From: a virus
Virus record (IMG/VR): IMGVR_UViG_3300042731_007874
DNA: 64,000 nt
Reading direction: 5' to 3' (one strand)
The position numbers were made by a program, and so were the translations under genes. The notes beneath the pieces are model-generated. The model saw only the letters and a list, made by a program, of their open reading frames with translations, was not told where the DNA came from and did not search any database. Within the stretch, counting starts at the first letter, position 1, and every line of letters begins with the position of its first letter. Shown one piece after another: positions 7,194 to 60,619 of this stretch.

Positions 7194-8137
7194 TGGCTGC
7201 TAAAATACAAGGTTTTACGTTTTACATAGATCTTCCAGAAGAAGTTACTGGGGTTCCAGAACGTGTTCAGATTGCAAATGAATTCGATTTTATATCTGAT
7301 CTTCTTTCTTTGCCTCGACTAGAAGAAGAAACAAATCAAGAGTTTAAGCAACGAATGATGGATGTTAGGGTTCATCAAGGAAGTCCTCTCTACGATGGGG
7401 TTGTAAATAATATTTCACGAGCTTTTGGATACAGTCGACAAAGAGCATTGTCCGTAGATTTAAAAACCGCTAGTAACGGAACGCTTGTGGCGACAAGCCC
7501 TCGTGTTGATATCTTAGCAAACAAATTTGTTTTATATTCTGATTGGCGACCTGATGGAACAGAAGTAATTGATAAAGAAATATACTTTTACAATCCCACT
7601 GATGAGGGTTATTTTGTTTCAGATCTTGTCTCTGAGATTAATGATTCTTCTTGTTTCTCTGCTGCTTTATATTCTGGCGTTCGTCCAAATCTACATACTA
7701 CTAGTTTAGTTAGAGGATCTTCTGATAATTTAATTAGAGGAGATGTCGCCACAGCAAGTTTAAAAATTGATTTAGCTGCTACCTACATTACAAGAGGCAG
7801 TCTTTTGTTTCATGAAAATGAAATATTTCAGACAGAGGTTTCTTCTTCTGCTTCTGCTGCAGGGGAATATTACGTAGACTATGAGAATGGAATAATTTAT
7901 CCATATTCTGTGCCTAATGGAGAATTCGAGATCTCTTATCACTTTGGTGCTTTTCCATTAGTAGTAGACTATAGTCTTATAAAAGCATATACTTTACAAG
8001 ATGATAATTTTATTCGTGAATTATACAATCACGAAACTTCTGCTGCAGGAACTGAAGTAAATACGTTGCCAAACGAAGAGGGTGCAGAAATCATACATCA
8101 ATTATTTATGGAAACAAGATATCTTTGGGGAGAATAG
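7193..8137 (+). CDS. Baseplate wedge protein (gpI-like N-terminus)
   Basis: LSLPRLEEETNQEFKQR resembles the gpI/gp7 'RxxxEtDexyRxR' motif; contains a YYVDYENGIIY beta module. Confidence 0.55.
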   Translation: MAAKIQGFTFYIDLPEEVTGVPERVQIANEFDFISDLLSLPRLEEETNQEFKQRMMDVRVHQGSPLYDGVVNNISRAFGYSRQRALSVDLKTASNGTLVATSPRVDILANKFVLYSDWRPDGTEVIDKEIYFYNPTDEGYFVSDLVSEINDSSCFSAALYSGVRPNLHTTSLVRGSSDNLIRGDVATASLKIDLAATYITRGSLLFHENEIFQTEVSSSASAAGEYYVDYENGIIYPYSVPNGEFEISYHFGAFPLVVDYSLIKAYTLQDDNFIRELYNHETSAAGTEVNTLPNEEGAEIIHQLFMETRYLWGE

Positions 8138-8140
8138 TTA

Positions 8141-34139: not shown

Positions 34140-34293
34140 TTAAATCTTCAATTTTACTATTCTCTTTATTTGCTAATGTTAGAAGTCTGTTTAGCATATT
34201 TTTGCTAGCAGCCCCTGCCAAAAGATTTGCAAGGTTTTCTACTTGATCTTCAATATTTGAAAGTTTTAGTTCTTCTTGATACGTTAATGACAT
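34081..34293 (-). CDS. Small coiled-coil protein
   Basis: SD GAGG, heptad pattern; coupled to the aminotransferase gene; its 3' end overlaps the last + strand gene. Confidence 0.55.
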   Translation of the reverse strand: MSLTYQEELKLSNIEDQVENLANLLAGAASKNMLNRLLTLANKENSKIEDLITTLTTQVAELKALAQKLQ

Positions 34294-35369
34294 ATTAATT
34301 CCTCATTCTGAATTATACTACAAATTCTTGTGATGTCTTTATTAGAAAGATCTAATCCACACGGTAGGTTAAGAATTCTTTTTGAAAAAAGTAATGTATT
34401 CCTCATGTTACTAGCTTTTTCAAAGTTTCGAAAAGGTTTCTGTAAATGATTAGGATACCATAATGGCCTTGTTTGAATATTTTTCTTTTTTAAAGTATTG
34501 AAAAGTTGATCTCTATTGTTTTTGCAATCATAACCAACCAACCAACAATTACTTCCTTCTAGATGTATAATCTTTTTCCCAAGAAACGATTTATATTTTT
34601 CTGTAATCTTTTGTTTCTTTTTGATAATTTTTGATAGTCTTTTAATTTGACTATAACCTAATGCAGCTTGCAAATTTGTTAATCCAAGGTTATAACCAAC
34701 TTCATTGTGAATATAATTTATTGGATCGTCTTTCGATTGAGTAATCCAATAACGGATTTTCTCTCCTAGTTCTATATTATTTGTAACAATAGCTCCTCCA
34801 TTACCAGAAGTAATTATTTTATTAAAGCTAAAAGAAAAAACACCAATATCACCTATGCCTCCACAAGGTGTTCCGTTATAAAAAGACCCTAGTGCTTCAC
34901 ACGAGTCTTCTATAATAAATAATTTATATTGTTTTGCAATTTCTTTTATTTTTGTCATTTCACAAGGATTCCCAAAAATGTGAACTGGAATAATTGCTTT
35001 TATCTTATGTGTGTTTTTTGTTTTTAAATAATTATTAACTTTTTCTGGATCTATGTTTAAATCTTTTCCACAATCGACAAAGATCGGTTCTGCCCCAGCA
35101 TGTAGAATTGAATTGATAGTGGCAACAAAAGTAATAGAAGGAACAAGCACTTTGTCTCCAGGGCCTATCCCAAGTGACTTAAGCGCCATAAATAAAGCAG
35201 AAGTACCATTTGCTAAAAGAGTTGCTTTTTTCGTTTTGGTAACTTTTTGTAGTTCTTTCTCTAGTTTTTCTACATAGGGACCTGTAGTATTTAGCCATCC
35301 AGACTCAATAGCTTTTAGTACTTGTTTTTTGTCTGTATCTGTAATTTGAGGACTAATAAGACTTACCAT
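34284..35369 (-). CDS. DegT/DnrJ/EryC1/StrS PLP-dependent sugar aminotransferase (Per/LegC-like)
   Basis: NGTSAL, PSITFVAT, IPVHIFG, IEDSCEALG, FSFSFNKIITSGNGG (PLP lysine), GYN..LTNLQAALG. Confidence 0.92.
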   Translation of the reverse strand: MVSLISPQITDTDKKQVLKAIESGWLNTTGPYVEKLEKELQKVTKTKKATLLANGTSALFMALKSLGIGPGDKVLVPSITFVATINSILHAGAEPIFVDCGKDLNIDPEKVNNYLKTKNTHKIKAIIPVHIFGNPCEMTKIKEIAKQYKLFIIEDSCEALGSFYNGTPCGGIGDIGVFSFSFNKIITSGNGGAIVTNNIELGEKIRYWITQSKDDPINYIHNEVGYNLGLTNLQAALGYSQIKRLSKIIKKKQKITEKYKSFLGKKIIHLEGSNCWLVGYDCKNNRDQLFNTLKKKNIQTRPLWYPNHLQKPFRNFEKASNMRNTLLFSKRILNLPCGLDLSNKDITRICSIIQNEELICH

Positions 35370-36109
35370 GATATCCTATATCTTTCAGATAAAACTCTCA
35401 TTGAATTATTATAATGTTCTGACAATGTTTTTTTAATAATTTTAGGCAGAGCAGGTTTGTTTGTTGATCTTAAATGAGAAGGGGTTATTTCGAAATCTTT
35501 TACGTTTAAAAAATTAAACACTTTAGATATTTTTTCTTGAGGATTGCTAAATAAATCTTCAGCTTTAAGAATAAAAATATTTTTTTCAGGGAAAAAATTA
35601 GCAAGAAAATCAATAGAGAGAAAATAATGGCCTCGTAATAAAAGATGAGAGTCTTCTCCTAAAAATGAAGAGGAAGAAGAAAAGAGATAATCAAAAAGAT
35701 TATTATTATACTTTTGTTTGAACTTTTTATCAATACTGCATAAATGATAAAAGTGAGAAATTAATCTATCAATAGGGTTTCTAATGCTGACTATTATTTT
35801 TATTTCAGGAAAATGGTTTTTGATCCGTCTAATAGAAGAACGGTTAAACAAATAAGTAGGAGAAGCTTCTCCTGTAATCTCTCCAATCTTACAAAATGGA
35901 AAACAATCTCTATACCAGTTAATTCCATTTTCATAATACTTGTCAAAGAATCTTAATTCTTTTTTCCCTAGAAGTTGGTTGTCGTTTGTTTTTGTTTTTT
36001 CTCCATTCCCCAAGGACTTAAGAATCTTAGGATGCTGTGTAAGCATATCGTAAAGAGAAGTTGTTCCACACTTACATTCTCCTACAATTATAAAAGATGG
36101 GTTATTCAT
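35363..36109 (-). CDS. PAPS-dependent sulfotransferase
   Basis: 5'-PSB KCGTTSL, KELRFFD, GEASPTY, 3'-PB RNPIDRLIS. Confidence 0.9.
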   Translation of the reverse strand: MNNPSFIIVGECKCGTTSLYDMLTQHPKILKSLGNGEKTKTNDNQLLGKKELRFFDKYYENGINWYRDCFPFCKIGEITGEASPTYLFNRSSIRRIKNHFPEIKIIVSIRNPIDRLISHFYHLCSIDKKFKQKYNNNLFDYLFSSSSSFLGEDSHLLLRGHYFLSIDFLANFFPEKNIFILKAEDLFSNPQEKISKVFNFLNVKDFEITPSHLRSTNKPALPKIIKKTLSEHYNNSMRVLSERYRISW

Positions 36110-36761
36110 TTAAAAGTATCTCCAGTTTGTTTTTTAATAAAGGGGTTGTAATTGTAGTTGGAAGATGCCAACCATATCCAAGGTTTTTATATTCTTTTTT
36201 TATTTGATTAGTACTTGGTTCAAGTAATTCTTCATTCATAGTAATAAACTTATAATTCTTTTTTATTGCTTTATCAAGAAGAATTACTTGAAAAGACAAA
36301 ACCAAAAGAGTTCTTTCTTGTAAACTTGCCGTTATTGAAGCTCTCAGCTTTCTTGCTGTTTCGATAAATTTAACTTTTTTAAAAGATCTTCTTTTATAGT
36401 TGTTGTAATCTTTAACTAAAGGAATAATTGGAGAAGAGAGAATTATTTTTTTGTCATTAAAGTTTTTTGCTAGTTTTAAGATTCCGCTAACTGCATAGTT
36501 TATCTCTTCTTCCAAAGAAGTTTTGAATTTTTCTTTTCTTTTCCAAATTGTATAGGCACAATCAACTTCTCCAAAGTTTAAGAGAATAATATCAGGTTCT
36601 TCGCTAACTTTCTGAATAAATAGATCTTGGTTTCGTTGTTTATTTAGTCCTTGTGCTGTTTTTCCTGGGATTCCAACAACTTTACAGATTTTAAATTTGT
36701 CAGAAGATATTTTTTTCCAGTTGTTTGTATAGGAATCTCCTAGGCAAATAACATTAACCAT
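36102..36761 (-). CDS. SGNH/GDSL-like hydrolase or O-acyltransferase
   Basis: Block I CLGDSY, block III NFGEVD, C-terminal His (GWHL). Confidence 0.7.
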   Translation of the reverse strand: MVNVICLGDSYTNNWKKISSDKFKICKVVGIPGKTAQGLNKQRNQDLFIQKVSEEPDIILLNFGEVDCAYTIWKRKEKFKTSLEEEINYAVSGILKLAKNFNDKKIILSSPIIPLVKDYNNYKRRSFKKVKFIETARKLRASITASLQERTLLVLSFQVILLDKAIKKNYKFITMNEELLEPSTNQIKKEYKNLGYGWHLPTTITTPLLKNKLEILLNE

Positions 36762-37617
36762 TGTATTTATTTTTTAGAATATCAATTGCTTGTTCAAAAC
36801 ATTCTTCTGAAGAATAATCTGTTGCGTTAATAGCGTGACAGTCGGAATGCCATCGTTTAGTAAACATCTTATTTTTTGGCATATTTATAGTAGTTTGTCT
36901 TCTCATAAAAGAAATTGAAGGAATTTTTCCTTCCCAAGAAGCGCACAAAAAAGCAGACCAACAACCTAAAAAACATTCAGAATCTAAGACTAATTGAGTT
37001 GCAAGCCTAGTGCTTGTTTTATTTACTAAATTAAAAAGTCCCTTTTTTTGATAATTAAATATTTCAGTTTTGTTTATAGCTGGAACGGAAGCCATTCTAT
37101 TATTTCTCAAATAAGAACTTCCAACAACTACAACATTATATTTTGTTTTTGTTATGATTTGATCTATGAGTTTTTTATAGTCTTCAGTAGGAACTACAGC
37201 TCTCCAGGGTTCTCCCGCAAACGGATGAATAAAAACATAAGGATTGTTTTTTATTTTTTTATGTAGTTGTTTTTCTTCTTTCGAAAGATAAACTTTGTTC
37301 TTGTCTCTTTTATTTATATTTGCCTTTAATTTGTCTTTTTCTTCTTCTTCTATAAACTGCCATCTATTGCGTATTGAAATTGTTCTATAGTCAGGTGTTT
37401 TGTTTTTCCATTTAATATAATGAGAAGTTAAAAAAGGAACATATTTAAAAAACTCTATCGCATTGTCATTGTGAGAAGAAAGAAGAAGATGTACTTTGTT
37501 ATTCAAAGAAAGCTTTTTGAATAAACAAGCCCATCCTCCAATCTGCAACCATTCTCGAAGAATATCTCCAAGATCATATTGTAAGTTATGGTTAAACGGA
37601 ATTGCTATTGACTTCAT
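36754..37617 (-). CDS. GT-B glycosyltransferase, GT9-like (paralog A)
   Basis: LGD near the N-terminus, YVFIHPFAG, NLVNKTSTR, FLGCWSA; paralogous to 39741-40598. Confidence 0.7.
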   Translation of the reverse strand: MKSIAIPFNHNLQYDLGDILREWLQIGGWACLFKKLSLNNKVHLLLSSHNDNAIEFFKYVPFLTSHYIKWKNKTPDYRTISIRNRWQFIEEEEKDKLKANINKRDKNKVYLSKEEKQLHKKIKNNPYVFIHPFAGEPWRAVVPTEDYKKLIDQIITKTKYNVVVVGSSYLRNNRMASVPAINKTEIFNYQKKGLFNLVNKTSTRLATQLVLDSECFLGCWSAFLCASWEGKIPSISFMRRQTTINMPKNKMFTKRWHSDCHAINATDYSSEECFEQAIDILKNKYNG

Positions 37618-37643
37618 CTAAAAATTATAACATTTTTTAGATG

Positions 37644-37853
37644 TCACAAAGAAAAAACTTCATCAATAGCCTTTGTGATTTCTACTCTTCTTTTATTAAG
37701 AGAGACAACCTGTTCTCCTAATTTTCCAACTTCTTCTAGGTTTTCTTTTTCATAATTGTCTTTTAATTCATTTATTTTTTCTTCAAGATGCCAAATTTTC
37801 AAATGTATTACAACAAGCTTGTCGATCATTTCACCAATACTATAGTTCAACAT
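37644..37853 (-). CDS. Small helical protein, DUF4254/DUF6165-like
   Basis: SIGEMIDKL..IHLKIWHLEE...LNKRR.EI..AID pattern. Confidence 0.5.
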   Translation of the reverse strand: MLNYSIGEMIDKLVVIHLKIWHLEEKINELKDNYEKENLEEVGKLGEQVVSLNKRRVEITKAIDEVFSL

Positions 37854-38080
37854 TAAAACACCTTTGTTTCATTAGTTCCAGAATTAAAGAATTTATCTAT
37901 TTCAAATCTGACCAATGAACGTTTATTGTTATATTCCCTTATCTTTAAGAAGATTTTTCCTTTGTCTTCTAAAGAAAGCCCCAATCTTGAAAAATTGTCT
38001 GTTGTTTTTATTTTGGTAGCTTCATGCCAAATTATAATATTTAAGCTTATTATTCCTTCTATTTTTTTTGAAATTTTCAT
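37853..38080 (-). CDS. Small helical protein, DUF4254-like (paralog of neighbour)
   Basis: Start set at the ATG in an ATGA overlap (38080); LNIIIWHE...YNNKRS..RFEIDKFF pattern. Confidence 0.5.
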   Translation of the reverse strand: MKISKKIEGIISLNIIIWHEATKIKTTDNFSRLGLSLEDKGKIFLKIREYNNKRSLVRFEIDKFFNSGTNETKVF

Positions 38081-38712
38081 TTGTGTTCTAGAACAAAACA
38101 AATATTACCTCTATGGCCTTCTGTTTCTCGACGAGATACTTCTTTCCATCGATCAAGATGAATTGGTTTTGTAAGAATATAAAACTTTTCATCAACAAGA
38201 TTATACCCTTTATACAAATCTTGAATCATATTGTAATTATATTTAAGAAGAAAATTTAGTTCTGTTGTTTGTTTTACAACAGAATAAGGAAGAGTACAGA
38301 TCATTCTTCCAGTTTTTTTTACAAAAGACATGCAGTGACGAAACGTTTTTAATTGTTCTTTTATAGGAGAATAACTCTTTTCTTGTTTATAAGAACCTAA
38401 ACCAATATGTTCTAAAACTGATACTAAAAGGACATTAGTAAACGTTCCTAGTTCTTTAGAAGTTTTTTTTCGAATGTCTTCTTTAATACAGGTTGCCAGG
38501 GGATTGTTTTTACCATTATTGAAATTTGCTCCTATTGGATCTATTAAGGTAAAAGGATATCCTCTACGAACAAAAAACCATTTAAATAAACTTAAGTTTG
38601 CTCCTATTTCTAAAGAGTTGCCTTCTTTGATGTTGTTTACAACAAAAGGGATCTCAAAACATCTAGGTCCTTGAAGATAAGATTCGCTATAATATTGCCA
38701 ATAGTTATTCAT
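38077..38712 (-). CDS. Class I SAM-dependent methyltransferase (DUF268-like)
   Basis: SLEIGA motif I, FTLIDP motif II, VSVLEHIGLGSY motif; located in the sugar cluster. Confidence 0.7.
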   Translation of the reverse strand: MNNYWQYYSESYLQGPRCFEIPFVVNNIKEGNSLEIGANLSLFKWFFVRRGYPFTLIDPIGANFNNGKNNPLATCIKEDIRKKTSKELGTFTNVLLVSVLEHIGLGSYKQEKSYSPIKEQLKTFRHCMSFVKKTGRMICTLPYSVVKQTTELNFLLKYNYNMIQDLYKGYNLVDEKFYILTKPIHLDRWKEVSRRETEGHRGNICFVLEHK

Positions 38713-39733
38713 GAAGTCTTTCTATATCATAATGAACCATTTTTTGAACAATATCTTTAAATTTTGTTGTTGATTCCCACCCAAGAATATTTTTTGCTTT
38801 AGAGGCGTCTCCCAATAAAGTTTCTACCTCTGTTAATCTAAAATATTTTGGATCTACTTCTACTCTTATAATGCCATCTCTATCATAACCTTTTCTTTCT
38901 ATTCCTTTTCCTTTAAATTTCAACGGTATGCCTGCAGCCTCAAAAGCAGCTTTGCAAAATTCTTCAACTGAATGGTTTTCTCCAGAAGCAATAACAAAAT
39001 CATCAGGATCTTTATGAGTTATTATTTTTATAATTGCATCACAATATTCAGGAGCATAACCCCAGTCTCGTTTAGCAGAAAGATTACCAAGAAGAACTTT
39101 TTCCTGTTTCCCTTTTGAAATATTAGCAACTGCAGTTGTTATCTTTTTGGTAACAAAGTTTTCTCCTCTTCGGGGAGATTCTGTATTGAACATAATAATA
39201 TTAGAAGCAAATAAGCCATATGCTTCGCGATAGTTTTTCGTAATCCAATATCCAAATACTTTAGCTGCGGCATACGGACTTCTAGGATTAAAGGGAGTTG
39301 TCTCTTTTTGAGGAACTTCTTGTACTTTTCCAAACATCTCACTTGTTGAAGCTTGAAGAAATTTTGAAGACGGACAAATCTCTCTTATTGCGTCTAACAA
39401 ACGAAGAACTCCTATTGCATCCACTTGAGCACTATATTCAGGAACATCAAAAGAAATTTTGACATGAGATTGGGCAGCTAAATTAACAACATAAGAAGGG
39501 TTGGTTTTTTCTATTAGCCTAGAAATATTCGAACCATCTGTTAGGTCTCCATAGTGTAAGAAAAGAATCTTATTGTAAATGTTTTTGTTCGAGGTTAAAT
39601 GATCAATGCGATCTCTTGTATAGAGACTAGTTCTTCTAACAAGGCCATGTACCTCATATCCTTTTGCTAAGAATTTTTCTGCTAGATACGATCCGACTTG
39701 ACCAGTAATTCCAGTAATTAAAACTCTTTCCAT
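38705..39733 (-). CDS. gmd: GDP-mannose 4,6-dehydratase
   Basis: LITGITGQ.GSYLAE, LHYGDLTD, NLAAQSHV..SF..PEY, QASTSEMFG, PRSPYAAAK, FVTKKIT, LGNL.AKRDWG, LLGDASKA. Confidence 0.95.
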   Translation of the reverse strand: MERVLITGITGQVGSYLAEKFLAKGYEVHGLVRRTSLYTRDRIDHLTSNKNIYNKILFLHYGDLTDGSNISRLIEKTNPSYVVNLAAQSHVKISFDVPEYSAQVDAIGVLRLLDAIREICPSSKFLQASTSEMFGKVQEVPQKETTPFNPRSPYAAAKVFGYWITKNYREAYGLFASNIIMFNTESPRRGENFVTKKITTAVANISKGKQEKVLLGNLSAKRDWGYAPEYCDAIIKIITHKDPDDFVIASGENHSVEEFCKAAFEAAGIPLKFKGKGIERKGYDRDGIIRVEVDPKYFRLTEVETLLGDASKAKNILGWESTTKFKDIVQKMVHYDIERLHE

Positions 39734-39740
39734 TTTTCTC

Positions 39741-40598
39741 CTAATAATTTATTAATATTTGTTTTGTTATTTGGCTTAAGTCTATCTCTTTAATATTTTT
39801 GTGAAAAAGATCTCCATTTATAGATACTATATTAACCTCTTTGTTGGCCCATCTTCCTCCTTCAGCTTGTTTATTCTTTCTGAAGATTCTAGCCCAGTTT
39901 TTAGGAACAATAATAGTACTAGGTTTATTATAAATCCAAGAAGCACAAGAATAAGCAGACCAGCAACCAACAAAACTGTGTTGTTTAGAAGCTAGAACTG
40001 CTCCTACTCTTGCATTTGTTTTATTTACTAGATTAATAAGTCCTTCTCTTTCATACAAAAACGACTCGCGCATTTGGTAAGAAGAATTTTTGTTTTTTCG
40101 GGTATAAGTTCCTCCTAACACAACTATATTTAACTTTGTTTTTGTTATTAAGGAATCAATAATAGGAATAAAGTCATTAGCCTCTAAACACATTCTTTGT
40201 CTTTCTCCAGCAAAAGGATGTATTAATATAAAAGGCCCTTTAGAAATAATTTTGTTTATTTGCTCATTATCTTTATCTGATAAATAAACTTTGTTCTTTC
40301 TTTTTTCTAAGTTTTTTAATGTTTTTACTTTTGTATATTTTTTTTTATGTCTTCTCCATAAGGAATTTCCATCTAAAACCCAACCATATTCTTTAACTTT
40401 ATAAATATGTGGATTGTATTTAAGAAGTTCTTCTACTTGAGGATTATGAGTAGAAGAAAAAACTTTTACTTTAGAATCGGGATATTTCTCTTTTAGTGCT
40501 TCAAGTCTATCCCATCCATTATGTCCATCAAGATAATACCAAAAAACATCCCCAAGTCCTCCTCCTAAAGTCAACATAAAAGTTTTATTTTCTGCCAT
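39741..40598 (-). CDS. GT-B glycosyltransferase, GT9-like (paralog B)
   Basis: GGGLGDV, ELLKYNPHI, FILIHPFAG, NLVNKTNAR, FVGCWSA. Confidence 0.75.
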   Translation of the reverse strand: MAENKTFMLTLGGGLGDVFWYYLDGHNGWDRLEALKEKYPDSKVKVFSSTHNPQVEELLKYNPHIYKVKEYGWVLDGNSLWRRHKKKYTKVKTLKNLEKRKNKVYLSDKDNEQINKIISKGPFILIHPFAGERQRMCLEANDFIPIIDSLITKTKLNIVVLGGTYTRKNKNSSYQMRESFLYEREGLINLVNKTNARVGAVLASKQHSFVGCWSAYSCASWIYNKPSTIIVPKNWARIFRKNKQAEGGRWANKEVNIVSINGDLFHKNIKEIDLSQITKQILINY

Positions 40599-40610
40599 GA
40601 TTTGTTTTCT

Positions 40611-42578
40611 TTATAAAATTTGTAAAATCATTTGTTTGATTTTTTCTGGTTTAATTATTTCTAAACATCTAGAATATTGAGACAAACTCCTTTTATATTG
40701 ACACTTTATTGAGCTATTTCTCCAACAAGGAATACATTCTAATCCTGCTTTTACAACAGTAACAGATTTATATCCTTTACATCTAGCTCTATAATCAATA
40801 GGGCCAAATAGGGTAATTACAGGCATCTCGTAAGAAGCAGCAATATGAAGAGGTCCTGTATCTACAGTGAAAAGTAAATCTGAATATTTCATAACAGCCA
40901 TTGCCTGTCTAAAAGATAAATCTTTAAGGTTTTGGGTTCCTTTTATATAGTCTCCCCTAACAAGAATATTATATTTATCTTTTAAACCGCCTACTAGAGT
41001 TTTATAATATGTTTCTGGCCAGTTTCTATAAAGTTCAGCACTGCTTAAGACAATAAAAAGAGTTTTTTTATCAGTATTGATGTTTTCTTTTTTCCATTTT
41101 TCTGCCCAAAACAATTCTTCTTCTTTAGGATAGTATCTTGGTTTCAGGTCTGTAATTAAATTTCTAACTCCAAGAGCTTCCGCGAAAACCTCAACCCGAC
41201 TTTTCTCGACAGATTTACTTAGACTTACTCTTGTGCTTTCATAATGCGCACAAGGAGAAGATATATCAAATATAAGAGAATATCTTCTGTAATTAATAGA
41301 ATCTTCTGTTGTAAAAACTTTTTCAACATTAGGGTCTGTTTCTACAATTCCTTTTATAAAAGGTTGAACCTGTAAGTGAATTTGATGATTAGGATATTTT
41401 CTTTTAACAGCCTCTATTCCATTTGAGGCCATTATAATATCACCAATTCCAGAAGTTTTTCTTCTTATAAGAATAATCTTATCTGATCTGAAGTCGGAAC
41501 GATTTTGTTTTTGAATTATTTGTGTGTTTAAAGGTTCTAGTAATTTTTTATAAATAGCCTCTTCTACTTGTTCTGCTGTAATTGTAGTTAAACAAGACAA
41601 ATGAGCTTCTTTACTTGACGATCTAATACATCTTGGAGAATACCAACAGGGAAAATGCGGACATCTTTGTTTTGCTAGAACAACAGAAGCATTGGAATAA
41701 TGATTTACTCTACTTTGAGGAGGGATAGGCCCAAAAATAGTAACTATCTTTTTTTCAAGCGCTCCCGCCAAATGAAGAATACTACTATCTGGAGCAACTA
41801 CTACATCGCATTGATCTAAAATTGCAGCAGTATCAGCAATACTTCGATCAAAAAAACCAAAGACTCTTTCAGGAAGATTAGTCCATTTACTAACAGTTCC
41901 TGTCCAGTCTAACAACAAAACTCTATTTTTAGGATTGTTTGAGAGTAACGTATATAGTTCTTTAACTTTTTCAAATGGCCAAGTTCGTCTAGCGTCATTA
42001 CTTCTAGTCTGAATTGCGATAAGATTGAGATCTGCCCTTTCTTCTCCTAAAAGATATTTTTCTTTAATTTCTTTTGAAGCAGAAAGTTTTTCTTCTTTTG
42101 TTATTACGTAAAGAGGCACAGGGTCTTCTTCTACCGAAAGCCCAACCGCTTCCGCAAATAAATCAATTCTATTAGGGGGGATATCTCCAATCTTTTCTTT
42201 TATCAGGCCAGTAGTCGTAACATCAACAGAATAATCATATTCTTGAGGAATCGCTTCTTTAGATGCGATTAGCTGATCTACTACTGGACAGTGTTGAATT
42301 ATTTCAGCAAGAGAACCTTGTGCGTAAATGAGATCTGTGGCATATGTCAAAATACATTTTGGGAGTATTTTCTTGATTTTCTTTAATAACGGAGTTGTCA
42401 TTAAGACATCTCCAATCCCACCAAGTCTTCGGTTAATTAAGATAGAGGGTGTTTCTTTTTTAAGAAGTTTGTCTAGTTGAAGAGGATTTGTGACAGGTTT
42501 TTTCCTTTTAGAAGAAATATTTATTACCCGGGCAGGAACTGGAGAAAATATTCCATGTCGATTTCTAATAGATTTCAT
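40611..42578 (-). CDS. Tandem two-domain GT9 (ADP-heptose-type) glycosyltransferase
   Basis: Two RR..GIGD starts, two PPNR.D.FA/KSRVEVFA motifs, two DSS.LHLAGA/DTGPLHIAA motifs, two IFGP motifs and two C..CW...C-x11-C tails. Confidence 0.88.
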   Translation of the reverse strand: MKSIRNRHGIFSPVPARVINISSKRKKPVTNPLQLDKLLKKETPSILINRRLGGIGDVLMTTPLLKKIKKILPKCILTYATDLIYAQGSLAEIIQHCPVVDQLIASKEAIPQEYDYSVDVTTTGLIKEKIGDIPPNRIDLFAEAVGLSVEEDPVPLYVITKEEKLSASKEIKEKYLLGEERADLNLIAIQTRSNDARRTWPFEKVKELYTLLSNNPKNRVLLLDWTGTVSKWTNLPERVFGFFDRSIADTAAILDQCDVVVAPDSSILHLAGALEKKIVTIFGPIPPQSRVNHYSNASVVLAKQRCPHFPCWYSPRCIRSSSKEAHLSCLTTITAEQVEEAIYKKLLEPLNTQIIQKQNRSDFRSDKIILIRRKTSGIGDIIMASNGIEAVKRKYPNHQIHLQVQPFIKGIVETDPNVEKVFTTEDSINYRRYSLIFDISSPCAHYESTRVSLSKSVEKSRVEVFAEALGVRNLITDLKPRYYPKEEELFWAEKWKKENINTDKKTLFIVLSSAELYRNWPETYYKTLVGGLKDKYNILVRGDYIKGTQNLKDLSFRQAMAVMKYSDLLFTVDTGPLHIAASYEMPVITLFGPIDYRARCKGYKSVTVVKAGLECIPCWRNSSIKCQYKRSLSQYSRCLEIIKPEKIKQMILQIL

Positions 42579-49020: not shown

Positions 49021-50070
49021 TTAATAATTTTCGCAAATGAGTTTACTTGCTTCTAAAAGATTTTTAACAATATGATCTGGATTTACTTTATTCCAGTCTA
49101 CTTCTTTTCCATATCCTGTTTTAACTGCAATAGTAATGATAGGTTCGTTTGTGCAAGCCGCAAGAATATCAGAAGGCCTATCTCCTATCATAAATTGGTT
49201 GTTAGATCGTCTTTTGTATTTGATATCTTTTTGTGCTTTATAAAGCATTCCCGGATTTGGTTTTCTATAAAACGATCTAGAGAAAAGATCAGGACAATAA
49301 TATACTTTATCTATTCTTGCTCCTTCTTTCTTTACTAAAGATATCATTTTTTTGTTTATCTTGAGAAAATCTTCTTTTGTAAGAAAGCCGTAGCCTATTC
49401 CAGCTTGGTTAGTAATAACAACAACTGCAAAGTTTTTCTCGTTAAATCTTTTAATTGCTTCTGTTGCTCCTTCTGTAAATTCGAAATCTTTTGGATCATG
49501 AAGATAGTTTACTTCTTTGTTAATAACACCGTCTCGATCAAGAAAAACAATTCCGTCATAAATATGAGATTCTGAACATTCTACTAAAAGTTCTTTGTTA
49601 ATAACATCTTCGATAATATTAGAGGTATGAATATCACAATTTATTTTATCTAAAATTTTAATTTCTCCAGAAAAATTTTTGACTTCTGAATGTTGTTCTA
49701 GTTGTTTTTTTGTATAGTCAGGCCCTTTGAAAAAGAAATCTGGTTGAAGCTGTTTAAGGTTCTCATGATTATCTGTTTCTGTAAATAGAAAACAATAATC
49801 AACATACTCTAGAGCAGCAATACAAGAAATTCTTTGAGATTCCGGGATAATAGGTCGGTTTGAATTTTTATATGATTGAATTGAGGAATCTGAGTTAACT
49901 CCAATTATTAACATATCACAGTTTTCTTTTGCTTCTTGAAGCCGCACAATATGGCCTAAATGTAATAGATCAAAAGCACCGGAGGTAAAACCAATTCTAA
50001 TATTGCTGTTTACTTTTTTGGTTGCTTCTTTTACAAGAATTGCTTCTTCTCTTGTTATTATTTTACTCAT
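49021..50070 (-). CDS. Fusion of RfaE/HldC-type nucleotidyltransferase and D,D-heptose 1,7-bisphosphate phosphatase (GmhB-like HAD)
   Basis: N-terminal TSGAFDLLHLGH...GVNSDSS...RPI....R; C-terminal FLDRDGVIN, VITNQAGI, YYCP, RKPNPGML, MIGDR.SD. Confidence 0.85.
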   Translation of the reverse strand: MSKIITREEAILVKEATKKVNSNIRIGFTSGAFDLLHLGHIVRLQEAKENCDMLIIGVNSDSSIQSYKNSNRPIIPESQRISCIAALEYVDYCFLFTETDNHENLKQLQPDFFFKGPDYTKKQLEQHSEVKNFSGEIKILDKINCDIHTSNIIEDVINKELLVECSESHIYDGIVFLDRDGVINKEVNYLHDPKDFEFTEGATEAIKRFNEKNFAVVVITNQAGIGYGFLTKEDFLKINKKMISLVKKEGARIDKVYYCPDLFSRSFYRKPNPGMLYKAQKDIKYKRRSNNQFMIGDRPSDILAACTNEPIITIAVKTGYGKEVDWNKVNPDHIVKNLLEASKLICENY

Positions 50071-53512: not shown

Positions 53513-54457
53513 TTATTTTGCTGTGTTAACAACTAACGCTTTTCGGGTTTCTTTATCAAGGGAAGAAAACCTGCTTCTTCCAATTCCGCCGCAATCATTA
53601 CATCTAAAAGATTTATATTTACCTGCAGGAGTAATATAACTTCCTCTCCAGTTAAGAGAAGTAGAACCACAATGTCCGCATACAGGTTCTTTGGACTCTA
53701 GATAAACTCCAATATTAGGAACAGAAGTAAACCATGGAAGCATTTCAAGAAAGACTTCTTCTAATAATGTAACATCATAGTTATTATATTCGAGCATTCT
53801 CTTTAATGCTTTTCGATTTCCTTGATCACACTGTCTCCATAACTCAAAATCAGTATGTAGCTTTTCTTTTCTGGAGATGATCTGAGTTATCCAGTTTAGT
53901 TTATGAGATGTAAACCCAAAGGTTTTTCTACTCTGTTCTAAAGTATCTATAACCGCAAATGGAGTTGTTGGCTTCATCTTGTTACAAAAGAACCTGGCCT
54001 TTAGTTTTTTGACATCAAAATGAGTTCCATTATGAGCTACACAAATATCACATTCTTCTAATAGATCCCAGATTCCTTTAAGGATTCTTTTGTCAGATCT
54101 TTGTGGCGCTTCATATGGGGTTAAGATATCTGAATACATTTTTGAATCAAACAACCATTTAGCAGACCAAGATAAAGCACACCAGTCCTTAATTATCATT
54201 TCTATAGGAATGTTTTGTTTGAATAAACCCCATACATAAGACTGAATAGGCAATGTTTCTATGTCAAAAATAAGTATTTTTGGAAATGATTTAGAGTTTT
54301 TTATTGATTTATTTTCTGTTCTTTTTAAGAACTTACGGATTGCTTCTTTGCTTTTATTAGAGCCAATGAGCTTAAGCTCTTTTCTTATCTGTTTATAAGA
54401 ATATCTTTGCCATTTTAGTTTTTTGGCAAGATTGCTTTCTTGTTCAGTCCAGTTCAT
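53513..54457 (-). CDS. RNase H-fold (DEDD/DnaQ-like) 3'-5' exonuclease with N-terminal HTH and C-terminal Zn ribbon
   Basis: FDIET, AHNG..FD, IDTL, YN..DV; CGHCGS...CNDCG; start set at MNWTE (54457) after GAAAGGA. Confidence 0.8.
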   Translation of the reverse strand: MNWTEQESNLAKKLKWQRYSYKQIRKELKLIGSNKSKEAIRKFLKRTENKSIKNSKSFPKILIFDIETLPIQSYVWGLFKQNIPIEMIIKDWCALSWSAKWLFDSKMYSDILTPYEAPQRSDKRILKGIWDLLEECDICVAHNGTHFDVKKLKARFFCNKMKPTTPFAVIDTLEQSRKTFGFTSHKLNWITQIISRKEKLHTDFELWRQCDQGNRKALKRMLEYNNYDVTLLEEVFLEMLPWFTSVPNIGVYLESKEPVCGHCGSTSLNWRGSYITPAGKYKSFRCNDCGGIGRSRFSSLDKETRKALVVNTAK

Positions 54458-54467
54458 TATTGTCCTT

Positions 54468-57400
54468 TCAGTTAAGTAAACTTTTAGAGTTGGTTTCAAT
54501 TATCTCTTTGTATTTATTGGCCTGCACCCACTGAGATTCACTAGTGGTCTCAGATGGGATAAACTCAACAATACAGTCAGAAAGATGAACTTTAATAGGA
54601 GATAGCTCTTTCTTTACAAAAGATGGGTTAATAAGATTATTTATAATAAGTTTAACGATTGGAGGACTATCGTCTTGTTGTATCAGTCCAACTCTGGCAT
54701 CAGCAATAAAGATTCGGTCTTCTTTTGCTTTCTCTTTAACTTTTTCCCAGGTCTTTGGAAAAATAGTTGCATCTAACTTACCAGTTTGATCTTCTACAAG
54801 GAGAGTTGCATAGTTTTGTTTCTTTTTGGAGCACTTTGTTTTTAAAGAAGAAACAATTATTGGAAGATGAATCTTTTCTTTATCTTTAACCTCTCCTGCT
54901 TGTAGATCTTTAATCTGGTATTTATAATTCGACAACACCTTAGAATAATCATCTAATGGATGTCCTGTCAAATAGAATCCAAGTGTTTTGCGTTCTAAAC
55001 GAAGCCTTTCTTTTCTAGACATCTCTTCTGGTTCTGGCAAAACAAGATCTACTGGTTTGTTTTCTTCTTTCATTTTTGGTAATCTTCTTGGTGGTTTATC
55101 TCCTCTCTCAACTGCTTCTTTAATTTCTTTATTTCTTACTTCTCGTTTCTTTATTCCTTCTTCCCATTTTAGTTTTCGTTTTTGTATTGCAATAAGTTCT
55201 TCAATGTTTTCAACAATTTGATGGCGGCCAAGAGAAGAAATTCCTTCTAACGCGCCACATTCTGCCAATGCTTCAATATTGTTTTTTGGTATTTTGTTAA
55301 TAACTAAATCTGCCAAGGAAGTAAACCCTTCACTTGGTCGTTTCTCTACCAAAGAACTACAAGCTTTTTCTCCTAATCCCTTTATTCCTGACAAGCCAAA
55401 AACAATGGTTCCATTATCAATAGTAAACTTACTATAAGATCTATTTACGTCTGGAGGAACTAACGGAATCTCTTTAGTTCTAATTGCATAAATATATTTA
55501 ATAATATCATCTTGATTTTCACAGTTGTTTAAAATAGCTGTATAAAATTCTACAGGATAGTGGGCCTTTAACCATCCAGTCCAGTATGACAAGAATGAAT
55601 AGGCACATGCATGTCCAAGACAAAATCCATATGCTGCAAACCCCTCAATCTCTTCAAATAATTTATTAGCTAAACTTTTATCAGTTCCATTTTTAATACA
55701 TCCAGAAATGAATTTTTCTTTTTCTGCTTTCATTTTTTCTGGAATCTTTTTGCCAACTATGCGGCGCATATTATCGGCTTCTGTATCAGAATAACCTGCA
55801 ACAGCAATACAGATTCTAGAAATTTGTTCTTGAAAAACAATAAGTCCATAAGTATCTTTTAGTATCTCTTCTAGTTCTGGAATATCTAATTTATATTTTT
55901 CTCCTTGTCTTCTTTTTATATAGGTTTCTGCAACACCACTAGACAAAGGTCCTGGACGATAGATGGCCGTACATGCAGAGAGATCTTCTATCTTGTTTGG
56001 TTTAACTTGCATGCATAATTCTTTAAATCCAGCTGAGGTCTCAAACTGGAAAATTCCATCTAGGTCACCATTATGAAAAAGCTTATAGGTTTTAGGATCT
56101 CCGTCTTCTAAAGACAATAAGTTAATCTCTTTACCAGTTGTTTCTTTAATAAAGTTTCTGGTATCAGAAATAATTGACAAAGTTTTTAGTCCCAAGAAGT
56201 CAAACTTAACAAGACCAATGTCTTCAATATCCTTCATATCAAACTGGGAAGCAGTTTCTCCATTTCGACCGGCAAATAAAGGAATAATTTCATTAACGGG
56301 GTCATCTGAAATAACAACTCCTGCTGCATGAATCCCCATTTGCATTTTAAGACCTTCTGATTTGCGTGCTAAATCAACTACTTCAGGATATTTTGTGTTT
56401 AGAAGATCTTTACTTTTTTCTAGTATTTCATTAAACTTTTGTGTTTTTCCTGCAATATCTCCAGGAATTAAACTTGCTAAATAATCTTGCACTGAAGGAG
56501 AATAGCCTAGCACCCTTGCAAAAGCTCTTAAAGATCCTCTTGGTTTAAATTCTGCATATGTGCCAATTTGAGCAACTTTATCAGATCCATATTTTGACAT
56601 AATATATTTAAGTAATTCATTTCTTCTGTTTCGATCAGCGTCATAGTCAATATCTGGAAGAGAGACTCTAGATTTATTTAGAAACCGAGAGAAAGGAAGT
56701 TTATATTTAATTGGATCTACGTGTGTAATTCTCAAAGAATAACAAACTAAACTAGCAGAACTAGATCCTCTGCCAGGAGAAGGAGTAAAATTGTTTTGTT
56801 CACACCAGTTAGCAAAATCTTGTACTATAAGAAAATAATTTGAGAACCCCATTTCTTTAATCACTTCAAGCTCATAGTCTAATCGATTTTGGTATTCTTT
56901 TGTTATATTATTAGGAAAACGTTTACATAATCCGGCTTGGGCCAAACTCTTAAGTTCTCCTTCTGCTGATTTATTAGTTGATATTTTATATACTGGCCAA
57001 ATAGTTCTAGAATGATCCCATTCTACGTTACATTTTGATGCAATTTCATTTGTTATATCAAGAGCAGGATAATATTTAGGATCAAACATTTCTTCCATTT
57101 CGCCGCGACTCTTGAACCAATTTTGATTTGAATCAAATATAAGATCTCCTGATGTTATTTTACATACATGATTATGTAATACATGATCTTCTTTATTTTG
57201 ATAATGGGCGTCTTGAGTAATAACTAAAGGAATATTTATTTCTTCAGAAACAAGTTCTAAGCAATTATTTAATCCAAGCTGCCAGCTTAAATTATGATTT
57301 TGTATTTCTATATAAAAATTATCTTTAAATATTTCTTTAAGAACTTTTGCATGTTTGAGAGCCTGGCTATATTTATCCTCTAAAATATTAACAGCAATAT

Positions 57401-57845
57401 GACCACTGCCGCATCCAGAAAGCACTACAAGCCCTTCTGAGTGCTCTTTAAGCAGTTCTATATCACAGCGTGGCTTCCCATAATAGAGACCATCTTGCCA
57501 GCTTCTGGAGGTTAGTCGAAATATGTTTTTCAAGCCTTCTTTGTTTTTGGCAAAAACAGTTAAATGATAAGAAGTTTTAGAATAGTTTTCTAGTCTTTCT
57601 TTTGTAAATCTACTTTCTGGGGCAACATATAATTCAATTCCATAGATAGGTTTTATATCTGCTTTTTTGCATTCTTTCTGTAACTTAAGTAAACCTCCTG
57701 CTCTACCATGATCGGTAACAGCAACAGCGGACATTTCAAGACTTTTAGCCTTTGTTACAATCTGTTTTACAGTTTGAATTCCGTCTTGTGGTGAATAATC
57801 TGAGCTAACCTAATGAGTGTGGAGATGAATAAAATTCTTCCCCAC
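54468..57845 (-). CDS. dnaE: DNA polymerase III alpha subunit; reading frame interrupted near the 5' end by an in-frame TAG (57810-57812)
   Basis: SD AAAGGA plus GTG at 57845 gives VGKNFIHLHTH*VSSDYSPQDG...TDHG...GIELY; downstream PGRGS, PDIDYD, HAAGVVI, KFDFLGL, YGF..HA.AY and OB-fold are intact. Confidence 0.92.
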
Positions 57846-57886
57846 ACTCGTAATTCCTTTCTGATTAGTATTCATTTTTACTAAAT

Positions 57887-58078
57887 CTATCCTCTTTCTA
57901 TATCAAACAATAAGTTTCTTTTAATACATCTTTTTGTTTTTTCTTTTATTCTTTTCTTTATTTCAGCTTCTATACTTTTCGGAGAACTGCCATAAAGATT
58001 TTCAACCATAAATTCCTTATGAATTATTTTAGTTAATTCATCCCAAAGGCTATCTTCTATATTAATTAGTATTTGCAT
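57887..58078 (-). CDS. Hypothetical protein
   Basis: 63 aa, coupled to the upstream gene. Confidence 0.5.
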   Translation of the reverse strand: MQILINIEDSLWDELTKIIHKEFMVENLYGSSPKSIEAEIKKRIKEKTKRCIKRNLLFDIERG

Positions 58079-58559
58079 CTTTATTATAACGAAAGGTGTG
58101 GCTGTCTACGATTATAGGATTATAGCTATTAGATCTTCTAATGATAGATTGAAGAATCTTCAGTTCAGAACGATAGCAAATCTTTAGAAAAGGAAAAATT
58201 CTTTCTGTTTTCAAATTAACCCCACCTTTATATAAAGTTTTGTTGTACGCCTCGTAAAGACTCCAGCCTAGAGGTATTTCTCCGGGTTTCACTATACCTG
58301 GATTAGTGAAATAGATTCTGTAGTTTCCAACGCCTCTAAAGTATTCTTGTCTTGCTGGTTTCATTTTGTCTTTCAAGAAGTCTTTACGAGAAGCTTTACA
58401 TTCAATTAGAATAGAACAGTTACTTTTCCATCCAATTACATCTGGTATCTCTCTAGATAGAGTGTCTGTCGTAAGTTCTTTAGCAATTATTTTACAACCA
58501 ATAGTTTTTTGAAGCCAAATAGCAGCTTTATCTACTAATTCTTTGTGTGTAAATTTCAT
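58062..58559 (-). CDS. MmcB-like PD-(D/E)XK nuclease
   Basis: EIPDVIGW...ILIECKASRKDFLKD, G.G.YR.Y, ELP.GW-like IPLGW. Confidence 0.7.
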   Translation of the reverse strand: MKFTHKELVDKAAIWLQKTIGCKIIAKELTTDTLSREIPDVIGWKSNCSILIECKASRKDFLKDKMKPARQEYFRGVGNYRIYFTNPGIVKPGEIPLGWSLYEAYNKTLYKGGVNLKTERIFPFLKICYRSELKILQSIIRRSNSYNPIIVDSHTFRYNKDANTN

Positions 58560-59371: not shown

Positions 59372-59914
59372 CTATTCAGAACTCTTATTTGTTTTTACTA
59401 AATTTTTAAATTGTCTTTTTCTCTTAGTTAGTTCTCTCATTAACTTAGCTCTGTATACTTTACTGGTTCTTTGTGCAATGGTAATTCCATTTAGATGATC
59501 TATCTCATGTTGTATTATGCGGGCTTCAAGATCTTGAAATATTTCAATTTGTTCTTTAAAATCTTTGTCTATGTAGTTGACAAGAACTTCAGTTGCTCTC
59601 TTGATTTCTATTTCTGCTCCCAAGAAACTTAAACAACCTTCTCTTCTTAAATCAGAACCAGAAGAATTAACAATTCTAGGATTAATCATAATTTGTTTAT
59701 AAATTCCAGAATCTATATAAATAATAGGTAATTTATATCCTATCTGTGGCGCGGCAATCCCGTTTGCATTATATTCTTTTACTATAGATTTCATCTCATT
59801 TATTACAAATGTGACAAACTCTTTAAAAGGTGGATCTTTCTCTATCTCTTCTAGATCTATAGGAACTTGTTCTGACAACAAAAGTTTATTCGGATAAATA
59901 ATTAATCTACTCAT
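59372..59914 (-). CDS. def: Peptide deformylase
   Basis: Motifs GIAAPQIG, EGCLS, QHEIDHLNG; start set at MSRL (59914). Confidence 0.95.
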   Translation of the reverse strand: MSRLIIYPNKLLLSEQVPIDLEEIEKDPPFKEFVTFVINEMKSIVKEYNANGIAAPQIGYKLPIIYIDSGIYKQIMINPRIVNSSGSDLRREGCLSFLGAEIEIKRATEVLVNYIDKDFKEQIEIFQDLEARIIQHEIDHLNGITIAQRTSKVYRAKLMRELTKRKRQFKNLVKTNKSSE

Positions 59915-60455
59915 TTGACTTCTCCATAGCACAAGGGGTTATCTCAAAACATTTCTGATACCATTCACAAGGTGGTCTCATATAAGAAGCTAATATTTGG
60001 TCATATTCGTCTGTTGATTTAGCAAGTTGATCTTTAAATTGTTTAAAGACTTCTCTTGTTTCTTTTGCTGCTTTATTACAGAGTCTTGCTTTTGCAATGT
60101 TTAAGATTGCGTTTACATTTAGATCCAGAACCATATTTATAAGTTTACCTTGTTTCTCTTCGGCGCGGGGGATAAGATTATTATTCCTATCATCTCTTTG
60201 TGAAAAGATATAAGGCTGAGAACCGATATGATGTCTAGAATAATGAGTTGCGACCCAAGAGGGAACATCATAAATAAAGAGTCTGTATTCAACAGCTCTT
60301 ATTGGAGAATGAGGAACTCCTCCTGCAGTGTTCAATAGAGAACTCCATAGCCTGGTAGAAATTGGCTTTAGAGAAGTTATCTGTCCTCCAGAGGTTGCTT
60401 TAATTGTTCCAGAAATATATTTTGGCCCACATTTTCTAATATAGTTAACCTTCAT
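59907..60455 (-). CDS. thyX: Flavin-dependent thymidylate synthase (phage-type)
   Basis: HSPIR, SWVATHYSRH...SQR, N..A.LN.A..RLC..A..ETR; start set at MKVNY (60455). Confidence 0.7.
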   Translation of the reverse strand: MKVNYIRKCGPKYISGTIKATSGGQITSLKPISTRLWSSLLNTAGGVPHSPIRAVEYRLFIYDVPSWVATHYSRHHIGSQPYIFSQRDDRNNNLIPRAEEKQGKLINMVLDLNVNAILNIAKARLCNKAAKETREVFKQFKDQLAKSTDEYDQILASYMRPPCEWYQKCFEITPCAMEKSNE

Positions 60456-60466
60456 TATTGGTCTCT

Positions 60467-60619
60467 TTAGATTTTTTTGTTTTCTTTTTGAACATAATCC
60501 CAACAGAAACCTTTAACCTTAAATTTGCAGTTCTTACATTCTATAAATATATCAAAAGACTTATCATATCTACCTTTTTGTTCTTTTGTTTTCCCGCAAT
60601 TTGGACACTTGATTCTCAT
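60467..60619 (-). CDS. 50-aa zinc-ribbon protein (below ORF-track cutoff)
   Basis: MRIKCPNCGKTKEQKGRYDKSFDIFIECKNCKFKVKGFCWDYVQKENKKI; SD AGGAGG. Confidence 0.7.
   Translation of the reverse strand: MRIKCPNCGKTKEQKGRYDKSFDIFIECKNCKFKVKGFCWDYVQKENKKI

Follow-up and report, generated by a model that had tools for sequence, protein, structure and literature searches.

The dnaE gene in the window (the whole 64,000-nt stretch of DNA that we analysed, from a large uncultured phage) is split after 11 codons by 9 nt that open with a stop codon. The interruption is real and recurrent: inserts of different length and frame occupy the same junction in related genes, and the coding parts on either side of them are selected as one protein. 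The window carries a recoding element that is real and conserved, in a gene that is essential to the phage. On balance, sequence comparison favors reading the 9 nt as a coding gap that ribosomes would pass undecoded, in a short programmed translational bypass.

The interrupted dnaE gene and its relatives

The gene lies on the minus strand. In reading order, a Shine–Dalgarno sequence, AAAGGA (57860–57855), is followed by GTG (57845–57843) and by GGG AAG AAT TTT ATT CAT CTC CAC ACT CAT. This first part of dnaE (ORF1, 57813–57845; GTG plus 10 codons) encodes MGKNFIHLHTH and ends with the putative take-off codon, His CAT (57815–57813). The Shine–Dalgarno sequence stands 9 nt 5′ of GTG, and this layout is common to 11 of 11 elements in the family described below. 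Directly 3′ of CAT comes TAG GTT AGC (57812–57804), of which TAG occupies 57810–57812; this is the 9-nt coding gap TAGGTTAGC, predicted to be untranslated. The sequence then continues in unchanged frame with TCA GAT TAT TCA CCA CAA GAC GGA. The second part (ORF2, 54468–57803) runs from Ser TCA (57803–57801), reading SDYSPQDG, to a stop at 54468–54470 and contains PHP, polymerase, finger, HhH, and OB domains. The DnaE architecture of PHP, DNA_pol3_alpha, finger, and HHH_6 was recovered with all four Pfam families over cut-off (PF02811, PF07733, PF17657, PF14579), and full-length homologs have ∼1110 aa. Directly downstream of dnaE, on the same strand, is a DNA polymerase exonuclease subunit (53513–54499; phrog_403, E 7e-94; RNase_H_2). 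No second polymerase was seen among the ORFs of the window.

An earlier note, made from the letters of this DNA, had described the Shine–Dalgarno sequence, the GTG at 57845, TAG GTT AGC, and resumption in the same frame, and direct reading confirmed each of these. It had also proposed that removing the 9 nt restores a canonical DnaE start, and this holds: uninterrupted relatives read M..F(I/V)HLH(T/V)H-SD(Y/F)SPQDG, with HLHTH joined to SDYSPQDG gap-free. The 9 nt have therefore been inserted, not substituted, and they separate Ser from the last His codon of the HxH motif. The start at GTG 57845 is backed by the dnaE family, including P0044 (MGKNYIHLHTHSDLS) and other gap bearers. Under translation table 11 the ORF opens only at Met 57734 and yields 1088 aa, a product recorded on two contigs. 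In the Pfam PHP profile this Met aligns at position 29, which puts the HxH motif and the first strand 5′ of the stop; a start at this Met would drop that first strand, as the note had said.

A protein search returned ∼70 relatives at 45%–59% identity; many were called from the same internal Met, and the gene calls of a few began right at the His|Ser junction. We took the DNA of relatives from IMG/VR and JGI metagenomes and aligned the homologous genes, as the earlier note had proposed, finding at this site either an 8- to 12-nt insert that opens with a stop or nothing. Ten further distinct dnaE loci, from unrelated metagenomes, carried a stop-initiated insert at the same His|Ser junction, which is far beyond chance. 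Over the 11 loci, the inserts measured 8 nt (six loci), 9 nt (three), 11 nt (one), and 12 nt (one), and the first codon was TAG in nine, TGA in one, and TAA in one. Besides that of the window, the 9-nt inserts were TAGGTTTGC (L006, the same in L082 and L179) and TAGGTTTTC (L173). Those of 8 nt were TAGTTCTC (L084, the same in L170), TAGTTAGC (L167), TAGTTAAC (L175 and L181), TAGCTAAT (L182), and TAGTTCTT (L196), and the longer ones were TGAGTTAGCTC (11 nt, L102) and TAAGAAGTTTAT (12 nt, L163). With 8 or 11 nt inserted, the reading frame changes, and in L102 stop codons close every alternative path; the window gap and L102 nevertheless have GUUAGCUCAG in common, despite the different reading frame in L102. 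GUU was kept in the downstream frame in nine of 10 main-family gaps (GCU in L182), and the resume codon was Ser UCA in nine of 11 elements.

Broader searches defined the reach of this family. GenBank phages had no DNA similarity to the window, and a protein search placed no cultured phage in its dnaE lineage (best match, 46% identity). An exact 38-mer of the window had no match in IMG/VR, a degenerate pattern scan found again only the record of L006, plus chance matches outside dnaE, and a locus search with a single protein gave no match. A search with the whole-protein alignment returned mainly other DnaE clades.

Several other dnaE relatives had unusual starts or additions. In P0047, P0059, and P0023/P0024/P0030, the called starts are unrelated and run directly into SD(H/Y)S or (V)YSCYS, a sequence pattern that suggests further forms of the gap, for example, of the ...GTT TAT type found in L163. 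A group of long relatives (1250–1590 aa; P0022, P0028, P0029, P0032, P0039, P0046, P0050, P0055, P0059, P0066, and P0069) has intein domains (PF14890, PF14528, PF05203), and several of these proteins also lack the N-terminus. In the window's clade, dnaE is a hot spot for selfish elements of several kinds. In a distant clade (∼32% identity), dnaE is broken just before GLATTDHG (L035:3848–4031, L051 and L054:3842–4025, L063:3848–4031). We rejected these breaks as stop gaps: those of L035 and L051/L054 are single-base frameshifts, and that of L063 is a 44-nt tandem duplication. They may be errors, pseudogenes, or frameshift sites.

Elsewhere in the window, two plus-strand ORFs of the structural module (7193–8137 and 8141–10456; 314 and 771 aa) share a frame and are separated by TAG and one codon. 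Reading through this TAG would give an ORF of 1087 aa, for which Pfam returned nothing in the first part and a weak Big_1 match in the second. In a 198-aa minus-strand ORF (59907–60503), similarity to the ThyX (Thy1) profile is confined to the last 40 profile positions, and the N-terminal 120 residues have no assignment; this ORF may encode a divergent or remodeled thymidylate synthase. The earlier note had suggested a search for other short stop-containing inserts, and no second gap was evident in either the 7193–10456 pair or the ThyX-like fragment. A set of sugar-modifying genes, an unusual phage cargo, flanks the replication module on the minus strand (34284–42578): a DegT aminotransferase, a sulfotransferase, a GDP-mannose 4,6-dehydratase, a heptosyltransferase-like protein, and a cytidylyltransferase/HAD fusion.

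The start-codon hairpin and selection around the gap

All 11 gap-bearing genes have a hairpin at the start codon. In the window it spans 57815–57849 on the minus strand, as defined by folding and by covariation over 11 sequences. The 5′ arm GAGUGUGGGGA (57849–57839) contains the GUG start, and the 3′ arm UCUCCACACUC (57825–57815) ends on the C of the last His codon; the loop holds an inner helix of 4 bp. The window hairpin folds at −22.4 kcal/mol (z −3.6). It was found in 11 of 11 gap bearers in a constant register relative to the stop: In all of them the 3′ arm ends 2 nt 5′ of the stop, at the first base of the last His codon, and the start codon (GUG in six, AUG in four) lies within the 5′ arm or next to it, with the Shine–Dalgarno sequence just 5′. 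The same structure occurred in none of five insert-less relatives (z −0.2 to +1.3).

Covariation supported the fold. Positions were paired in 95% of cells of the 11-sequence alignment, compared with 27%–62% in slid controls; six of 10 pairs showed compensatory double changes, and none of 500 shuffles reached the covariation score. Where the 3′ arm varies, its codons change synonymously or conservatively and the 5′ arm compensates, and the G-U pairs in the stem imply that the structure forms in the sense-strand RNA. The hairpin is thus real, and it is specific to genes that bear a gap. In the main family, the gap and the region that follows are unstructured (window gap, −0.2 kcal/mol, no better than shuffles), and a hairpin of the take-off type appeared only in L102 (CACUGAG-UUAG-CUCAGUG, −11.2 kcal/mol). 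The hairpin region matched no Rfam family and no terminator.

Selection acts on the coding sequence on both sides of the gap. Over the 24 codons from the resume codon to Met 57734, read in the downstream frame, gap bearers had a pooled pS of 0.78 versus a pN of 0.33. In ORF1, FIHLHTH is kept, with synonymous changes only. The two parts therefore serve as one protein. Synonymous-codon identity was raised only in the seven codons before the stop of gap bearers (0.64, vs. 0.42–0.43 for the same codons in insert-less genes and for all downstream codons), and the last His codon was CAT in 10 of 10 main-family bearers versus six of 12 insert-less genes.

A nuclease cassette upstream of dnaE in relatives

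In four relatives (L102, L163, L181, and L196), dnaE is directly preceded by a gene for a nuclease-like protein of 235–307 aa, with a Cys-rich (zinc-finger) N-terminus and a phage endonuclease-I-like PD...E-x-K core (PF05367). These nucleases are 43%–50% identical among themselves. A 3′ remnant of such a gene, its last 20–26 codons, lies directly upstream of dnaE in L175 (E 6e-8), L173 (E 3e-5), and L082/L006 (E 0.002). A nuclease gene was found at none of eight insert-less loci, where that place is mostly taken by a NUDIX gene.

Interrupted dnaE genes are patchy and scattered over the DnaE tree. In a tree set of 48 relatives, labeled as interrupted or not by their gene-call starts, the 14 N-terminally interrupted rows need 13 gains or losses, at least 12 of them forced by supported branches; shuffled labels need a mean of 12.3, so 13 is no fewer than random. 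Together with the adjoining nuclease genes and remnants, this scatter indicates that the hairpin and gap of relatives are the 3′ end of a mobile nuclease cassette. The earlier note had considered the 9 nt as the scar of a lost intein or intron. This was not supported: in relatives the insert forms the 3′ end of a cassette with a free-standing nuclease gene, no remnant of an intein or group I intron was seen at the gap (only 9 nt are there, with no Rfam match), and the inteins of relatives (PF14890, PF14528) sit elsewhere, in longer proteins. The note had missed the hairpin, the frame-changing relatives, and the cassette.

In relatives the cassette nuclease decays and the gap persists, and the same has presumably happened in the window, where we detected no cassette nuclease gene or remnant. 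The window, L182, and L084 have the cassette in common only from the Shine–Dalgarno sequence and 5′ arm to the gap. Under the origin that we propose, a zinc-finger/endonuclease-I-like nuclease gene would have inserted just upstream of dnaE, and the window would have lost the nuclease and kept the gap. On the model of MobA and gene 60, the gap would shield the carrier's own dnaE from the cassette nuclease.

The two window ORFs upstream of dnaE (63 aa and 165 aa) have no counterpart in the flanks of relatives. The longer (58062–58559, minus strand) has a PD...ECK motif and a weak Hjc-like match below cut-off (PF01870, E 0.003) and belongs to a phrog without known function (phrog_631, E 1e-30), making it a possible, weak PD-(D/E)XK-like nuclease candidate. 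We rejected it as a homolog of the cassette nuclease (hhalign probability of 0.3% vs. the endonuclease-I-like nucleases). Endonuclease-I-like genes without the zinc-finger N-terminus are regular neighbors of dnaE in the distant clade (L012–L078), ∼2.3 kb downstream (for example, L072:9070–9528). These are probably ordinary resolvases, and the cassette nuclease may derive from them.

Proposed translation across the gap and known systems

Ribosomal bypassing had been one option in the earlier note, whose reading was partly supported overall; it is the option that the data support best. We infer the hop, the exact point at which it lands, and a pulling role of the hairpin. A ribosome would initiate at GTG 57845 within the hairpin arm, melt the hairpin, and synthesize MGKNFIHLHTH, and it would then pause with CAU, bound by peptidyl-tRNA-His, in the P site and with UAG in the A site. 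At this pause the 5′ arm would be free behind the ribosome, while the 3′ arm would lie in the first base of the P site, the E site, and the exit channel. Refolding of the 10- to 11-bp hairpin would strip the mRNA from the tRNA and draw it backwards by ∼8–12 nt through the ribosome. After a move of 9 nt (8 nt), the base of the stem would stand 8 nt (7 nt) from the new P-site triplet, approximately the position of a Shine–Dalgarno helix. Decoding would restart at Ser UCA and give the canonical HLHTH-SDYSPQDG DnaE. A trailing ribosome would also be kept away, as the 5′ arm lies over the start codon.

Other signals known from bypassing were looked for around the gap. We looked for matched take-off and landing codons, and the main family had none. 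For the take-off codon CAU there is no cognate triplet to land on; the landing triplet would be AGC in the window and AGC, UGC, UUC, CUC, AAC, AAU, CUU, or UAU in relatives, with only the 3′ pyrimidine (NNY) constant. An A-site (take-off) hairpin that could shield the stop from release factor is absent in the window and the main family. The nascent chain of ORF1 has 10–13 residues across the family and 11 in the window, too short to anchor peptidyl-tRNA, so drop-off and termination should compete strongly. A shorter hop that adds one or two extra residues is possible, given that GUU is kept in the downstream frame. The genome record of L006 encodes tRNA-Ser(UGA) and tRNA-Ser(GGA) (L214:118–209 and 1466–1551); it is conceivable that this phage supplies the tRNA for the resume codon Ser UCA, which may also be coincidence.

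We tentatively extend this reading into a more specific one, in which we have less confidence than in the bypass itself. The dnaE element could be a minimal, self-contained bypass module of ∼60 nt that would require no matching codons, no A-site hairpin, and no nascent-peptide signal. The start-codon hairpin, refolding behind a stop-paused ribosome, would then be both the spring and the ruler that moves the mRNA by 8–12 nt, besides blocking trailing ribosomes. Such a module could let selfish nuclease cassettes settle in front of a replicase gene that is essential, and the phage would pay little for it.

We weighed the bypass against four other readings. The in-frame UAG might be decoded by a phage or host suppressor tRNA or a near-cognate tRNA, adding X-V-S in PHP motif I, perhaps as a timing device. 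This amber read-through, an option of the earlier note, would serve the 9-nt copy in the window, where the gap is in frame, and likewise L082, L173, and L163. The GUU kept in the downstream frame is in its favor, and a suppressor tRNA could be encoded elsewhere, the window being about one-third of a 184-kb genome. The homologous 8-nt (six) and 11-nt gaps change the frame and are beyond such rescue, so simple stop read-through is not the general joining route, and the stop itself varies among TAG, TGA, and TAA. A search for a tRNA with a CUA anticodon, which the note had suggested, came back empty: there is no tRNA of any kind in the 64-kb window, and the 28%-complete record of L006 has the two serine tRNAs and no suppressor. 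TAG ends many genes in the window, which table 11 packs tightly; general recoding of TAG was rejected because table 11 gives dense ORFs and read-through adds only short tails. The hairpin, moreover, lies 5′ of the stop, whereas known stimulators of read-through lie 3′, and three added residues beside a metal-binding His would be unusual. We consider read-through unlikely. That the insert is an assembly or sequencing artefact or a minority defective allele, as the note had also allowed, is extremely improbable. The gene would look intact minus the 9 nt, but related inserts occupy the same junction in 10 other assemblies from different and unrelated samples, each with a compensated, covarying hairpin; purifying selection acts on both sides, and the window product was recorded on two contigs.

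Removal of the gap from the RNA would account for its variable length and frame and for a conserved RNA structure that adjoins it: the hairpin would mark the transcript for two cuts 8–12 nt apart, followed by religation (a micro-intron processed by an endoribonuclease and an RNA ligase). Such excision, raised in the earlier note, would fit the gap data, but we know of no such RNA micro-excision system in bacteria or phages, and no RNA ligase or RtcB-like gene was found among the window ORFs scanned. A PNK3P-like phosphatase domain (49021–50070) lies within a cytidylyltransferase/HAD protein and is not evidence of RNA repair, and the gap is unstructured, with no Rfam match. We regard RNA-level removal as quite improbable. 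Alternatively, the two parts might never be joined, with translation ending at UAG and the polymerase starting at Met 57734 or a non-canonical codon, the first 11 residues being a by-product or the gene a pseudogene. Gene callers do start at least 14 relatives at that Met, and E. coli DnaE, from which part of the HxH motif is gone, shows that a polymerase can do without some PHP ligands. This reading is opposed by the purifying selection on the 24 codons from gap to Met in gap bearers, and by an ORF1 in which FIHLHTH is kept through synonymous changes while the 5′ arm compensates. The gap is also not followed by a right-frame start codon, the window showed no other polymerase, and the interrupted state persists across many diverged lineages, all of which makes the absence of joining very unlikely. 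Two further routes were rejected outright: reinitiation lacks an in-frame start codon after the gap, and a single −1 or +1 frameshift would place tRNA-His where it has no slip site, with the alternative frames of the window stopping at once and those of L102 blocked throughout.

A second lineage has a similar layout. In another dnaE clade, L130 (IMGVR_UViG_3300006056_000029; L130:1489–1506) carries a 6-nt gap seven codons further on, reading TTT CTT [TGA CTC] GAT GGA, with matched Leu codons CUU/CUC around the stop. A 12-bp hairpin extends from its UUG start codon to 1 nt before the take-off codon. The 294-aa ORF upstream had no Pfam match. The start–hairpin–stop layout of L130, with CUU UGA CUC as a classic hop-over-stop arrangement, supports the general bypass reading.

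Very few natural systems are known to use programmed translational bypassing, and the best-studied of them depends on an elaborate set of signals. If our reading is true, the 8- to 12-nt gaps of dnaE, with one covarying hairpin as their sole universal signal, would be the simplest natural bypass element known and would make it testable which signals let a ribosome release a codon and resume downstream. There is also a consequence for annotation: gene callers truncate gapped dnaE at the internal Met, in at least 14 of the 48 tree-set relatives and in more of the full match list, dropping the metal-binding motif from the annotated protein.

Short ribosomal hops over a stop codon, of the CUU UAG CUA type, were reportedly described by Weiss and colleagues in 1987, in a study listed among the references of PMC10732093. 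In these, as proposed for the dnaE element, a ribosome bearing peptidyl-tRNA skips a few nucleotides including a stop, and L130 (CUU UGA CUC) has this very arrangement. They are, however, inefficient laboratory events that re-pair with a matching codon, whereas the main dnaE family has no match and has a covarying hairpin. In phages that recode stops through suppressor tRNAs, the recoded stops stand in place of sense codons at many sites and in numerous genes, most of them late. Such phages resemble the window in having an in-frame TAG within a phage gene; dnaE differs in its single stop, set in a conserved insertion, in a window where TAG is otherwise a stop and with homologous copies that change frame.

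A candidate bypass has been described in the terminase gene of Streptomyces phage phiHau3 (PMC10732093), which also cites the mitochondrial byps of Magnusiomyces capitatus. As presented there, these resemble the proposed dnaE bypass in that natural gaps within essential genes are passed over, a slow A-site codon opens the gap, and local RNA structure is implicated. They affect other genes, have other gap lengths and another trigger (a rare UUA codon), and have matched take-off and landing codons and no start-codon hairpin. The tape-measure gene of Corndog is an unresolved case (PMC4351075). In the searchable bypass literature (gene 60/MobA, phiHau3 terminase, Corndog), dnaE is not mentioned.

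The closest parallel is T4 gene 60 with its MobA cassette. Cassettes of this kind occur in topoisomerase genes, with gaps of 20–50 nt, of which 20 nt is the shortest published clade (10.1101/2022.08.31.505936), and the 5′ stem-loop of gene 60 has been assigned a role in directionality by refolding behind the ribosome (PMC6551183), a role that the refolding proposed here for the dnaE hairpin would mirror. In both systems, an essential phage gene of DNA metabolism holds a noncoding gap that opens with a stop after the take-off codon (10.1101/2022.08.31.505936; PMC6551183; PMC5462505). Both have a 5′ stem-loop upstream of take-off, and in relatives the dnaE gap, like that of gene 60, is the 3′ end of a cassette with a free-standing nuclease gene, which spreads from one related phage to another and can lose the nuclease and keep the gap. 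The gene that is hit differs (dnaE here, a topoisomerase gene in T4), as does the nuclease (endonuclease-I-like with zinc fingers, vs. the HNH enzyme MobA), and we claim no sequence homology. The gap of gene 60 is 50 nt long, and that of dnaE 8–12 nt. Matched take-off and landing codons are missing from the main dnaE family and occur only in the L130 type (CUU/CUC), the take-off (A-site) hairpin is missing from the main family as well, and a nascent-peptide signal in the tunnel is impossible with the 10–13 residues of ORF1. The 5′ hairpin of dnaE, unlike that of gene 60, holds the start codon. The dnaE element thus most probably works like gene 60 while departing from it in three defining features. 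It would represent a second, independent selfish nuclease cassette that carries its own translational repair device, alongside MobA and gene 60 of T4.
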